46,389 nt of DNA from a virus. Taxonomy: Duplodnaviria; Heunggongvirae; Uroviricota; Caudoviricetes. A program made the translations under genes and the position numbers. Of this stretch, positions 2,050 through 5,903 are shown piece after piece. The first letter of the stretch is position 1, and each line of letters begins with the position of its first letter. The notes beneath the pieces were generated by a model. It searched no databases and had not been told where the DNA came from. It saw only the letters and a list, made by a program, of their open reading frames with translations. The DNA is taken from the IMG/VR virus record IMGVR_UViG_2850808358_000009. One strand, written 5' to 3'.

Positions 2050-2499
2050 TCATCTCCGCTGACGGCGATAAATCTCATCGTTGCGATCGACCTGCGCCTG
2101 CACCATTGCTGCCGCCAGTTCTTCCAGTTCCGGCATCGACAGTTTCACCTGCTGATTATCGGCATCGCTCCACGCCATATGTGTTTGTGCTGTGACAGAT
2201 TTTGCCAACATGACTACCGGGGACAGGCGGCCCAGTGAGTCGGGACCAGCATTCCAGATACGACCGTTCCATTCAAACGTGAACGGCTTCGCCTCCTGTT
2301 CTGCGCGCCATGCTTCAATTTCCTGACGCCTGGCCTCTCTGGCCGCTTCCAGCATTTCTGGTGTCACAGTGAATGGGGCTATCTCACCCCATTTGCCGCT
2401 TTGCAGTTCCTGCCAGATTTGCTGACCCGTCGGAGCGACATCATCAGCGGTGGCTGTGTAGGGGACTGCCTGGTCCCTGTCGTCAAAAAAAAACGTCAC
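2050..2499 (-). CDS. Putative tail fibre assembly chaperone of the distal fibre cassette
   Basis: 149 aa ORF directly downstream of a fibre gene; size and position typical of a Tfa. GTG start followed immediately by a T9 tract, no obvious SD. Confidence 0.5.
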   Translation of the reverse strand: MTFFFDDRDQAVPYTATADDVAPTGQQIWQELQSGKWGEIAPFTVTPEMLEAAREARRQEIEAWRAEQEAKPFTFEWNGRIWNAGPDSLGRLSPVVMLAKSVTAQTHMAWSDADNQQVKLSMPELEELAAAMVQAQVDRNDEIYRRQRR

Positions 2500-2564
2500 A
2501 GTCTACTGCGCCACTTTCGGTATAACGGGGATTAATGATTTTTTTAATTTCCACGGTGCATTCC

Positions 2565-3968
2565 TCACGATGTGCGAATAAAAAGCCCGGGCATTGCGCC
2601 AGAGACATGTGCATCCGGCACCCCGGACAGGGCGCAATATGACCCCGGTAATGAATGCTCTGAACATCCCGTAATGAAAAATTGTGGGGATGCTATATAC
2701 GTTCCGGTGGGAGCACTGGGCACTGAAATCCCCACCGGTCCCAGTCGTGAGCCTCTGTATGACTGCCCCCTGACAAGTCTGATGACTTTATCACCGTCAG
2801 CTTCTCCCTGGTACGCAGCAATAATCAGCCCGCCAATGTCAGGGTCTCCCCATCTGTTGCGGACAGAGCTCGCCACGATTCTGTAAATAATATCTTCTGT
2901 GGTTATATTTATTTTCACCCAGCCAGTCAGTCTGGATATGGGCCAGTAGCAGTAGCGGGTGTGATAAATGGGGCCGTTAATGCCGTAAAAAGTAAGGGAT
3001 TTGGCTCTGTACCGCGGTTCTGTTGTCTCAGGGCGTGCATCAGTCCACCGGATGCTGAGCACCCCTTCAAACCGTGTGTCGGGTATGATGCCCAGGCGGC
3101 CAGCAACGGAATACTCACCTGGCAGCGCATTCCTTACCCAGGCCAGGAAATCACTCTTAGTGTCAAAACGGATAACATCTTCAGGCAGAAAAGCACACCC
3201 AAAGCCGAATGCGCCGGGTATCGCCAGACGGCCTTTTGTCCGGTCGTAAATGTCGCTCTGTGCTTCCATCGTGGCCGCACTTTTCAGCCCCAGATTATCC
3301 CGGGACTTCTGTTGTACCTTTTCGCCTGCTGCCGCAATTTCTGACAGATGGTTAGCCATTTTCAGAGTGCCGGTCAGCGCAGCATCAATGTCATTTTTGG
3401 CCTGTTCTGCTGCGCGGGCATAACCTGCGGCAGCCTGTGCACGCTGACCGGATAAGACGGCGTTTTTCCCCGTGCTTTTCACGTCTTCCGCTGTGGCCTT
3501 TCTGTTCTCAGCTGTGACGGTTGCATCCTGTCGGGCTTTCTCCGCAAAACGTTGTGCATCATCACGGGCCGTTGCGGCTGCCGTCACATCCTGCGCCGTC
3601 TGCCGTGCGTTTCCGGCTGCGCTCCCGGCACTCTGCTGCGCCTGTTGCGCCAGCTCTTCGAATTTCTTCAGGGATTCCGGACGCAGGTCAATATTAGTTG
3701 CGCCCAGAAAATCATTCAGCAAACCGTCCGTTGAATCTTCATAAACGCGGATGACACCGATTTCTGAAAGGCGCCGTGTGCTTTGTGTCAGGCGAACGCT
3801 GTACACACCCGGCAGAACGGGGAAGTCATATTCCCCGTTCTGTGTGGTGACATGGCTGAAAACACTTTTCAGAATCCCTGCACGGTTGTGTATGGAGGTT
3901 AGTGTAATGGTTGCGCCGTCCAGCGGTTCTCCCGTGGGCGTTTTAATCACACCTTTAAGCTGCGGCAT
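2565..3968 (-). CDS. Side-tail-fibre-like protein (lambda Stf-type N-terminal domain, divergent C-terminus)
   Basis: 467 aa; N-terminus resembles the lambda Stf / prophage tail-fibre N-terminal domain (GVIKTPTGEPL...YSVRL...VYEDS...LNDFL), followed by an Ala/Gln-rich coiled region and a distinct C-terminal domain. Confidence 0.65.
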   Translation of the reverse strand: MPQLKGVIKTPTGEPLDGATITLTSIHNRAGILKSVFSHVTTQNGEYDFPVLPGVYSVRLTQSTRRLSEIGVIRVYEDSTDGLLNDFLGATNIDLRPESLKKFEELAQQAQQSAGSAAGNARQTAQDVTAAATARDDAQRFAEKARQDATVTAENRKATAEDVKSTGKNAVLSGQRAQAAAGYARAAEQAKNDIDAALTGTLKMANHLSEIAAAGEKVQQKSRDNLGLKSAATMEAQSDIYDRTKGRLAIPGAFGFGCAFLPEDVIRFDTKSDFLAWVRNALPGEYSVAGRLGIIPDTRFEGVLSIRWTDARPETTEPRYRAKSLTFYGINGPIYHTRYCYWPISRLTGWVKINITTEDIIYRIVASSVRNRWGDPDIGGLIIAAYQGEADGDKVIRLVRGQSYRGSRLGPVGISVPSAPTGTYIASPQFFITGCSEHSLPGSYCALSGVPDAHVSGAMPGLFIRTS

Positions 3969-4500
3969 CGGGACGCTCCGGCCAGTTGATGGCGTTATAT
4001 GTGGCTTTATCTGTGATGGTGCTGAAATCCATCGCCTGCAGCGATTTCGCGTAAATACGGTACGCTTTCAGTTTTTCCCGGTCTTCGTCGCTGATTAGCC
4101 CCAGCAGCAGGTCTTCTTCCCATTCCCCTGTCCGGGCACTGACCTGAGCCAGAAGGGCATCACGCTCATCTTCCGCTTTGAGTCTGTAGTCAAAGACAAA
4201 TTCATCATTGCGGTAAAACCAGTAACCCGGCGCGGTAATCCGTCGGTTAGCGGTAATATCAGGAACTTCAATAACACTGGCATTGCGTGGCTCGATGCCT
4301 GTCACATCCTTACCGACCCACACCACACGACCGTCTCCGGTGTAAGCTATTTTTATTGTGTCGCTGGCGAAATTCTTCAGTTCTTCATACCAGTTTTTGT
4401 CGTCTTCCGAAAAAAGCCAGGTGACCGAATATCGTTTTGTCATCTGATATTGCTCAACAGTTTTTGGATTACCCGCTGTAATATTTTTTAAATGTAACAT
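3955..4500 (-). CDS. Tail fibre assembly protein (P2 gpG / Mu U family)
   Basis: 181 aa; N-terminus MLHLKNITAGNPKT...WLFSEDDKNWYEELKNF matches the P2 G / Mu U chaperone family as I recall it. Confidence 0.8.
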   Translation of the reverse strand: MLHLKNITAGNPKTVEQYQMTKRYSVTWLFSEDDKNWYEELKNFASDTIKIAYTGDGRVVWVGKDVTGIEPRNASVIEVPDITANRRITAPGYWFYRNDEFVFDYRLKAEDERDALLAQVSARTGEWEEDLLLGLISDEDREKLKAYRIYAKSLQAMDFSTITDKATYNAINWPERPDAAA

Positions 4501-4502
4501 AA

Positions 4503-5903
4503 TTAAACGCTCGCCACGTTATACCAGGTACCATTAATCAGTTTTTGCAGCGGTCGGTAATACACACCGTTGACGTTATCCGCTGAGTTACGGCCGGTAT
4601 CCGATATCGATATCCCTGACAACCCGTGTCCCGAAGGTGAGCGAAACGTCCATGAAACGGTGTTGCTGCCAGGGTTGTAATACATTTCATGGCCATACCG
4701 CACATCCTGTACCCCCTCAGTTCGATGTTTATAGCGGGCATCGAAGTTTCCGTAATTTAACGGAATTACCTGTCCGTTTACGGCGAACGTGATGCTGTTA
4801 TCTGTATTCCTCTGGCTGAAAAAATGCCAGCCTGAATCATCACCAAGCTCTGCAACAACAGGCCTGGATGGATTACCCCACAAACAAAACGCTGCATTTT
4901 TCGTGGAGTTGTTGGCGCTGGATAACGTGAATTTTCTGGCAGTTCCGGCCTGAATATTCTTAAAAGCAATAGCCACGCCATTCTGAAAACGAAATACATG
5001 CTGTCCATTCGCATAAACATCAAGCAGACCATCGCCATTTTGTTTAAACCCGGTATCGTTATCTCCTAAAACGATTGAACTTCCACCTAACGCATTCGTC
5101 GTACCAATTCCAAGACAACCATTAATGACGGCATTAACCAGAATATTTAGTGTATCCCATTTGAGATTCATCAGGTCTTTAACCCGGCCGCCAGCGAGGC
5201 GGTGTCTCCATTTGAAATACTCATTGCCGTTGTCACCTGTTTCAAACCACATGTATGAATCAGTATCGCTGTCGGCATCATTTTTAAATCCAATCTTCGC
5301 CCAGTCAGTATTCCGAATCCAGGCGAGGATTGAGTCGTTTTCAAAAGTAAGTCCACCGGACAAGGTATCGCCTTCCTGATGAACATAGCGTTGATCTGAC
5401 TGCTCTTTACTGTAAACCTGAAGATTATCCCGTGCCGTCCCTTTATTCTGAAGGTCTGACAGATTGTTCTTCTGCCGCAGGAATATCCTTTTCGGATCCT
5501 CAAGAAGATTTACCCAGCCCGCACTGTCGGAGCCTTCAGGATCGGTCAGGTTATCGTCTGTGGTATTCAGCCAGACCGCTGTTGTTGCGACTCCGGCGAG
5601 AATGGCTCCTTTTGCATATCCACCAATGGCCCCCGCAAAACCGGCATTATACGTGTACAAACCGCCAGCCTGGGCGAACCGTATTGCTGCGGTAATATCG
5701 TACATCAGACCGTTAAAATCCTTGCCGTGTGGCGGTATACCTCCCGCTGAGACCGCTGTCATGGTCACCGGAGGAAAACCTGAATCATACGCAGCATTAC
5801 CGCTCTCTCTGGTCTGCTGTGTCGCCTTGTCCGGGATACGGTTTTTATCTCCGGTACTCGCAAAGGGGACCGCCAGCTGGCGGGGTTTATCACTGGCCTT
5901 CAT
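4503..5903 (-). CDS. Tail fibre protein (C-terminal region P2 gpH / Mu S-like)
   Basis: 466 aa; long C-terminal stretch ([34 protein letters not shown]...NGTWYNVA) closely resembles the receptor-binding region of P2 H-type fibres. Confidence 0.8.

Follow-up and report, generated by a model that had tools for sequence, protein, structure and literature searches.

We analysed a 46,389-nucleotide stretch of DNA (hereafter the window; IMG/VR record IMGVR_UViG_2850808358_000009), whose source record, CP026877.1, is a Shigella-type chromosome and whose nearest named homologues lie in Shigella sonnei, S. boydii, S. flexneri and S. dysenteriae. An integrase gene at 44517-45920 indicates that the window covers a whole prophage. 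Our subject is the end of its late operon, where two tail-fibre genes, each followed by a gene of a fibre-chaperone family, occupy positions 1991-5903. A first-pass annotation made from the letters alone had described two such pairs on one strand, the proximal one of P2/Mu type and suited to a contractile tail, the distal one with a lambda Stf-type N-terminal domain and a different chaperone, and family matches for each of the genes bore this description out. The features are listed below in the direction of transcription of the late operon.

10635-12311, minus strand: tape-measure protein with a lytic transglycosylase domain, in the distal late operon
6497..7738, minus strand: Baseplate_J wedge protein (PF04865; in the PDB, E217 gp44 at 6.6e-25 and XM1 gp16 at 2.5e-9)
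5890..6495, minus strand: DUF2612 wedge protein, third member of the wedge triplex (PF11041, 223.8 bits; best PDB match XM1 gp17, 2.3e-8)
4503..5903, minus strand: fibre 1, a Mu S/P2 H-like baseplate fibre of 466 amino acids (Gp34_trimer, 36.8 bits; PDB 5yvq)
3955..4500, minus strand: Tfa1, assembly chaperone of fibre 1, 181 amino acids (PF02413, the lambda Tfa/Mu U/P2 G family)
2565..3968, minus strand: fibre 2, 467 amino acids, with a lambda Stf-type N-domain (PF08400)
3350..3970, minus strand: swapped mosaic block, fibre-2 codons 1 to ~205 (identity profile)
1991..2554, minus strand: DUF4376 chaperone gene of fibre 2, frameshifted twice (PF14301 and alignment to relatives)
1855..1875, minus strand: terminator-like hairpin of 9 pairs (7 G-C) followed by a T-run, after the second chaperone
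1..1812, plus strand: ipaH-type type III secretion system effector, an E3 ligase carried as cargo (NEL, 253 bits, and LRR_TTSS)

All four cassette genes are co-oriented on the minus strand, within the distal part of the late operon that occupies window 1-12300, and further baseplate genes lie between the tape measure and Baseplate_J. The genes are tightly packed: the DUF2612 gene overlaps fibre 1 by 14 nucleotides, 2 nucleotides lie between fibre 1 and Tfa1, Tfa1 overlaps fibre 2 by 14 nucleotides, and the ancestral DUF4376 gene spans 2554 (a GTG start, 10 nucleotides past the fibre-2 stop) to 1991. The sole strong terminator-like hairpin, at 1875-1855, stands past the last of these genes, with nothing comparable between the two cassettes, and would close the late operon after the second chaperone. 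The ipaH gene is convergent with the fibre operon, and the copy in a sibling prophage is named IpaHb by the Prokaryotic Genome Annotation Pipeline (PGAP). As for the tail to which these fibres would belong, the sheath (13714-15198) is of the DUF3383 family and matches gp31 of Pseudomonas phage E217, the wedge proteins are homologous to those of E217 and XM1, and the sibling of the 181-amino-acid protein encoded at 15179-15724 is called a 'neck terminator' by PGAP; judged by these homologies the tail is a contractile one of the simple-baseplate, E217/XM1-type lineage, to which the proximal pair is suited.

Fibre 1 matches the Mu tail fibre S (PDB 5yvq) with an E-value of 9.4e-58, and window 4797-5372 is ~82% identical in nucleotide sequence to P2 gene H. 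Residues 1 to ~170 (5394-5903) find no match in phiP27 or pPE4, the C-part (~170-466) is 39-55% identical to the fibres of those phages, and across carriers of the cassette the N-termini of fibre 1 go with their own baseplates, a pattern that suggests a lineage-specific N-terminal adaptor joined to a shaft and tip common to other tail lineages. Because the gene follows those for the J and DUF2612 proteins and this N-part is lineage-specific, we infer that the N-terminus of fibre 1 binds the baseplate wedge, with Baseplate_J as its probable docking platform. Directly 3' of fibre 1, Tfa1 scores 91.5 bits against Caudo_TAP (PF02413, cut-off 22.1), which places it in the assembly-chaperone family that accompanies fibres of this type, and it is 70-86% identical to the Tfa proteins of phiP27, pPE4, ETEC1747 and SC418. 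Base composition falls over the C-part of fibre 1 and Tfa1 (4200-5400), where G+C is 0.44-0.48 as against 0.52-0.58 on both flanks, consistent with a horizontally exchanged segment.

Fibre 2 is matched by phage_tail_N (PF08400) at 101.8 bits (cut-off 26.6) over residues 4-129 and can be divided into a collar-type N-domain (residues 1-90; 3699-3968), a predicted coiled coil (residues 98-225; 3294-3677) and a predicted C-terminal receptor-binding domain (residues 236-467; 2568-3263). By sequence, residues 3-90 match the N-domain of lambda Stf (StfN, PDB 9e7m) at 3.1e-9 and residues 3-184 match the collar spike gp40 of the Vibrio myophage XM1 (PDB 7kjk) at 5.2e-8. We modelled the protein with AlphaFold2 on a 28-sequence multiple sequence alignment, which gave a predicted local distance difference test (pLDDT) score of 61 overall and ~70-88 in the N- and C-domains; the single-sequence model, at pLDDT 41, was unusable. 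Residues 1-89 are modelled as a beta-sandwich, residues 98-225 as a long helix and residues 260-467 as a beta-rich C-domain, and a Foldseek search with this model retrieved lambda StfN (9e7m) with a template modelling score of 0.87 and a root-mean-square deviation of 1.8 A over 92 columns, as well as XM1 gp40 (E 5e-6). In the model, the N-domain is therefore predicted to be a six-stranded beta-sandwich leading into a helix and superposable on solved StfN, as a PF08400 domain should be, and the same search gave no significant PDB fold match for the C-domain. The gene directly 3' of fibre 2 belongs to a family of fibre chaperones: the open reading frame at 2050-2499 scores 54 bits against PF14301 (cut-off 25), and two DUF4376 proteins, gp27 of V22 and gp9 of A5, both Alteromonas phages, have been experimentally proven to be fibre chaperones (PMC7289586, PMC10579305). 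No PDB sequence match was found for the DUF4376 protein. Fibre 2 does not stand in a lambdoid context, since it follows a baseplate fibre and Tfa1 rather than J/Lom and has DUF4376 rather than PF02413 as its own partner.

The same four-gene order, fibre, Tfa, PF08400 fibre and DUF4376, recurs in phiP27 (L54-L57), Rac-SA53 (tail1-4) and vB_Apl-pPE4 (gp67-70), in a Citrobacter prophage and in Salmonella and Yersinia prophages, the last two with an acetyltransferase or glycosyltransferase moron between the pairs, and the four corresponding PGAP product names stand together in enterotoxigenic and many other E. coli chromosomes. Fibre 2 follows a fibre and Tfa pair in 32 of 37 cases by BLAST, and Pfam adds the Tfa in two BLAST-negative cases, loci L095 and L096. 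In certain Mu-like prophages, genes of the Mu gp41, 43, 44, 45, 46, 47 and 48 Pfam families precede a cassette made up of a 269-amino-acid fibre, Caudo_TAP, a PF08400 fibre and DUF4376, after which come Com and Mom, so that the dual cassette, flanked by gp48 and com/mom, takes the place that the G segment and gin have in Mu. Three of these prophages (L106-L108: GCA_903974555.1, GCA_014331675.1 and GCA_026946405.1) encode an identical fibre-2 protein at the eut, xdh and rha sites. SfMu, considered as a further carrier, was rejected because it has a normal G segment. When the virion proteins of phiP27 and pPE4 were compared all against all, similarity was confined to the C-part of fibre 1, Tfa, fibre 2 and the chaperone, and the cassette therefore moves as a unit with its junction inside fibre 1. 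BLAST sorts the contractile baseplates of the carriers into three classes; since the Mu47/48-like class takes in phiP27-type tails together with true Mu-like ones, the carriers have at least four unrelated contractile tails. In its distal position in a contractile-tail late operon and in its gene order, the window's cassette thus has the hallmarks of the phiP27-type dual cassette, and among its other carriers are phage records and Mu-like prophages at three sites that appear plausibly functional. The locus is an ordinary, widespread dual receptor-binding cassette of a kind routinely auto-annotated in Shigella, enteroinvasive E. coli (EIEC) and E. coli prophages.

Some of these relatives show peculiarities of their own. 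Between the cassettes, Salmonella enterica s1 (L096, 8650-9956) carries a hexapeptide acetyltransferase and an unknown opposite-strand gene, and Yersinia similis Y228 (L095, 8737-9738) a family-2 glycosyltransferase; this cargo may represent surface-modifying lysogenic-conversion morons. The phage pPE4 (PP818812.1; L002, L087) is labelled an Actinobacillus phage and has the tail-gene layout of the E. coli prophage Rac-SA53, the fibre cassettes of the two are each ~93% identical in nucleotide sequence to that of phiP27, and pPE4 also has the E. coli-type genes DicA, YdaT, Kil and Hok, so that its stated Actinobacillus host looks doubtful.

We then surveyed 85 PF08400 occurrences from IMG/VR, GTDB and reference loci and classed each by the subtype of its N-domain and by its upstream genes. 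(A search with a narrower N-domain alignment returned 14 genome loci, and a seven-sequence alignment was too divergent.) The counts were as follows.

Lambda-like N-domain: contractile baseplate 0, J/Lom 29, upstream context unassigned 0
phiP27-type N-domain: contractile baseplate 31, J/Lom 1, upstream context unassigned 17
Window-type N-domain: contractile baseplate 6, J/Lom 0, upstream context unassigned 1

The lone lambdoid case of the phiP27 type is the second fibre of locus L022, behind a lambda-type Stf and Tfa pair. That locus (4959-9501) is a lambdoid Shigella prophage (J, an IS4 insertion, Lom) with two tandem PF08400 fibres: a lambda-type Stf whose C-part resembles that of the window's fibre 1, followed by its Tfa, and then a phiP27-type PF08400 fibre with DUF4376. 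On these sequence comparisons the N-domain subtype partitions cleanly by tail morphotype, and the window's fibre 2 is not a misplaced lambdoid fibre. Covariation of the N-domain subtype with baseplate or with Tfa type was tested as well, and none was found. The N-domains of the window and of the Mu-like prophage L106 are 91% identical and their Tfa proteins only 34%, and the window and the Mu-like prophages have in common the 14-nucleotide overlap of Tfa and fibre 2.

Identity profiles locate a further exchange within fibre 2. Among siblings that have the window's baseplate, identity to the window is 90-100% as far down as ~3970 and again below ~3350, and nothing is shared over 3350-3950, a block corresponding to fibre-2 codons 1 to ~205 that is instead common to EIEC RMDEC465 and to Mu-like-type loci; by these profiles it is a swapped block. 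Of the two breakpoints proposed in the first-pass annotation, that at 3955-3970 is accordingly a real mosaic boundary, and that at 2500-2570 lies in continuous identity and proved instead to be a frameshift site. Repeats were looked for at both and none was found at either, the segment 3955-3968 being simply the stretch in which the end of the Tfa gene overlaps the beginning of fibre 2. Downstream, several ipaH prophages of the same Shigella genomes, myoviral and lambdoid alike, have in common at 97-100% identity a block made up of the C-domain of fibre 2, its chaperone and the 3' part of ipaH (window 1-3350 against L011, L022, L043 and L097-L103, with the whole of ipaH common to only some copies); it resembles a recombination junction common to these prophages, through which they exchange fibre tips and the ipaH cargo.

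Taken together, we consider it likely that the late operon of this contractile-tailed, ipaH-carrying prophage ends, at 1991-5903, in a dual receptor-binding cassette whose two fibres are both displayed. In the proposed arrangement, the N-terminus of fibre 1 (~170 residues) would plug into the Baseplate_J/DUF2612 wedge, and its tip would be folded by the PF02413 Tfa. Fibre 2 would be a trimer on the plan of lambda Stf and XM1 gp40, in which an Ig-like collar domain at the N-terminus leads into ~130 residues of helical coiled coil and then into the receptor-binding domain at the C-terminus; the DUF4376 chaperone would fold it, and its N-domains would encircle the neck as a docking ring on the terminator or connector, much as in XM1. 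Since both pairs lie in a gapless single transcription unit, the particle would carry both fibres at once and so have two receptor specificities constitutively; by analogy with lambda Stf, fibre 2 would not be essential and would instead make adsorption faster or the host range broader. The block comprising the fibre-1 C-part, Tfa, fibre 2 and chaperone moves horizontally between unrelated tails, with the fibre-2 N-domain swapped again within it.

Two alternatives would deny that the second pair is a co-expressed, working part of the tail. The first-pass annotation had taken it for a captured module, possibly a recombination remnant, and in its strongest form this would make cassette 2 a relic that recombination, whether illegitimate or homologous, had brought in from a lambdoid prophage. 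Such an origin would account for an N-domain of the same family as that of lambda Stf, for the near-identity of the fibre-2 C-domain, chaperone and ipaH to copies that stand behind J/Lom in the same genomes, for the frameshifted chaperone and for the loss of fibre 2 in the sibling prophage of CFSAN029787. We nonetheless regard it as improbable, because the same architecture is conserved in phiP27, Rac-SA53 and pPE4, in recently transposed Mu-like prophages and in the Citrobacter, Salmonella and Yersinia prophages, because the N-domain subtype is associated with myoviruses and never belongs to the first fibre behind J/Lom, and because the genes are tightly packed in the late operon; a two-fibre architecture conserved across relatives is also the very observation that the first-pass annotation had named as fatal to its own proposal. 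The other alternative, that the cassettes are alternatives switched by a Pin/Gin-type invertase, had already been dismissed in that annotation, and our searches agree. The window contains no invertase gene next to the cassettes or elsewhere, the fibre region contains no inverted repeats beyond short chance-length matches, no site resembling a Gin/Pin crossover core occurs in 1800-6600, and no alternative inverted C-terminus flanked by crossover sites was found, as a Gin/Pin/Cin switch would require. What speaks for a switch lies just outside the window, where CP026877.1 has a 77-amino-acid Pin-like Resolvase fragment 0.7 kb past the start of ipaH (L105, 14679-14912) and siblings have pinE pseudogenes past ipaH (L003, 2185-2739; L090 and L092, 14316-14783). 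These may be leftovers of an ancestral invertase-bearing fibre region. With the two cassettes in the same orientation, with N-termini that differ between the two fibres and so cannot be alternative C-termini of one gene, and with no cassette-adjacent invertase in phiP27, Rac-SA53 or the Mu-like relatives, the chance of a switch is negligible.

Granted that fibre 2 is displayed, where it sits is a more even matter. That it sits at the neck is, on the analogy with XM1, close to an even call or slightly below; the neck is favoured because the tube/hub junction is buried in a sheathed tail, and such mounting fits the N-domain's indifference to baseplate lineage. A rival placement, which we hold to be rather unlikely, has fibre 2 working on the baseplate periphery or as a side branch of fibre 1 or Tfa, in the manner of branched receptor-binding protein systems. 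In its favour, the fibre-1 C-part, Tfa, fibre 2 and chaperone are the only proteins common to all carriers, fibre 2 nearly always follows a fibre and Tfa pair (the BLAST and Pfam counts given above), and its N-domain covaries with neither neck nor baseplate lineage; weighing the other way, the N-domains of solved homologues encircle hexameric tube, terminator or connector rings and not fibres, the N-domain subtypes are uncorrelated with Tfa type, and lambda-like subtypes function without any fibre 1. Several observations count against display at the neck, or against the arrangement as a whole. Near-identical N-domains (84-98%) occur in phages with unrelated necks and baseplates, and one virion lineage carries either N-domain subtype, an indifference to neck and baseplate lineage which means that docking is permissive or takes place on a shared cassette protein. 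The window's terminator matches XM1 gp5 only at an E-value of 0.74, which is not significant, nor was any significant link found between the window's neck proteins and those of XM1. In every dual-cassette phage, both the incorporation of fibre 2 into the virion and its position are deduced by analogy, and the loci of the subtype survey are mostly non-independent Shigella copies. Finally, the window's own copy of the cassette may be inert, given that the chaperone is frameshifted twice, that a sibling is without fibre 2 and that virion genes carry single-nucleotide indels. Vibrio phages carrying the N-domain, once considered as evidence for myoviral mounting, were dropped when they proved to be siphoviruses.

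The state of this copy deserves description. In relatives, the DUF4376 protein has 187-188 amino acids and begins M(Q/E)IK, and the intact frame of ~187 amino acids is absent from the window. The gene carries a +1 frameshift from an extra T (T9 at 2485-2493, as against T8 in in-frame copies) and a -1 frameshift from a one-nucleotide deletion at 2056/2057, placed by alignment to RMDEC465 and to the relatives of 187-188 amino acids; split in this way, the open frame at 2050-2499 is only the middle piece of the gene at 1991-2554. Among 63 related copies, the T-run was T8 in 47, T7 in 11, T9 in 2, T6 in 1 and T10 in 1, with only T8 in frame, and the deletion at 2056/2057 was found in none of them. 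The variation in the T-run could reflect slippage-prone on/off switching of the fibre-2 chaperone, or a sequencing artefact. Compared with the 99.5%-identical sibling prophage of E. coli CFSAN029787, which has lost fibre 2 by deletion and retains no more than a fragment of DUF4376, the window has seven further single-nucleotide indels (7956, 8058, 12360, 16343, 16575, 19876 and 24391), all in short same-base runs, and these split the sheath-initiator, tape-measure (558 + 99 amino acids as against 673), a neck gene and a DUF2213 gene. The indels and the chaperone frameshifts represent either real decay or homopolymer sequencing error. If the sequence is accurate, fibre 2 would not be matured in this copy because its chaperone gene is frameshifted. 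This copy of the cassette is probably degraded.

For a temperate phage of enterobacteria, the prophage has an unusual replication module (28005-44323), which encodes a Prim-Pol/DUF5906 primase (753 amino acids), a DUF2800 PD-(D/E)XK nuclease, a SNF2-type helicase and, in an open reading frame of 975 amino acids with a TTG start, a family A DNA polymerase.

Comparison with known systems clarifies what is shared and what is not. The cassettes of phiP27, Rac-SA53 and pPE4 resemble that of the window in gene order and in their Tfa (70-83% identical), chaperone (74-76%) and fibre-1 C-part (39-55%), whereas in baseplate, sheath, neck and the N-terminus of fibre 1 these phages are unrelated to the window, and their fibre 2 has an N-domain of the other subtype (~37% identity) and a receptor-binding domain that is 30-36% identical. 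In Ur-lambda, the gpV/gpM junction is ringed by a collar of 12 StfN copies (PMC12617516), and Ur-lambda Stf (PDB 9e7m) is, like fibre 2, an accessory adhesin that starts with a collar N-domain, continues as a trimeric coiled coil and has its receptor-binding part at the distal end; unlike the window, lambda has a non-contractile tail with its collar at that junction and a PF02413 chaperone instead of DUF4376, and the window's N-domain subtype, unlike lambda's, is not seen in a first fibre behind J/Lom. In XM1, six gp40 trimers bind the neck proteins gp4 and gp5 through the N-domain (PMC10457771). XM1 gp40 has an N-domain homologous to that of fibre 2 and a long coiled coil, and the XM1 wedge proteins gp16 and gp17 resemble the window's J and DUF2612 proteins, respectively; gp40 differs, however, in its tailspike C-part, in having no described DUF4376 partner and in the position of its gene apart from the baseplate fibre genes, and attachment to the neck, demonstrated for gp40, is for fibre 2 something we infer. 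Fibre 1 and Tfa1 are homologous to Mu S and U, but Mu obtains its second specificity (S'/U') by Gin inversion, whereas that of the window would come from a separately attached, co-expressed fibre. The Alteromonas phages V22 (gp26/gp27) and A5 (gp8/gp9) likewise have a DUF4376 'chaperone cap' gene directly 3' of its fibre, and V22 further encodes a baseplate protein of the DUF2612 family and a wedge resembling XM1 gp16; they differ in their marine hosts, in their other fibre families and in that no PF08400 N-domain has been reported for them.

For the window itself these findings have little significance, as the cassette is routine and this copy looks degraded. Of broader interest is that a whole two-fibre host-range unit travels between unrelated contractile tails by way of a crossover inside fibre 1, that subtypes of the lambda Stf-type collar domain track tail morphotype and that, in Mu-like prophages, the two-fibre unit replaces the invertible G segment. 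It is possible, and we advance this only tentatively, that the PF08400 fibre of contractile enterobacterial phages is a whisker-like neck collar fibre, and that the unit as a whole is a portable, constitutive two-receptor cassette which serves as an alternative to G-segment inversion and is spreading among at least four unrelated myovirus tail lineages and into lambdoid prophages as well; under that proposal, the N-domain subtypes may be morphotype-specific yet lineage-indifferent. The junctions observed here also suggest cut sites for fibre engineering in myovirus- or tailocin-based delivery.

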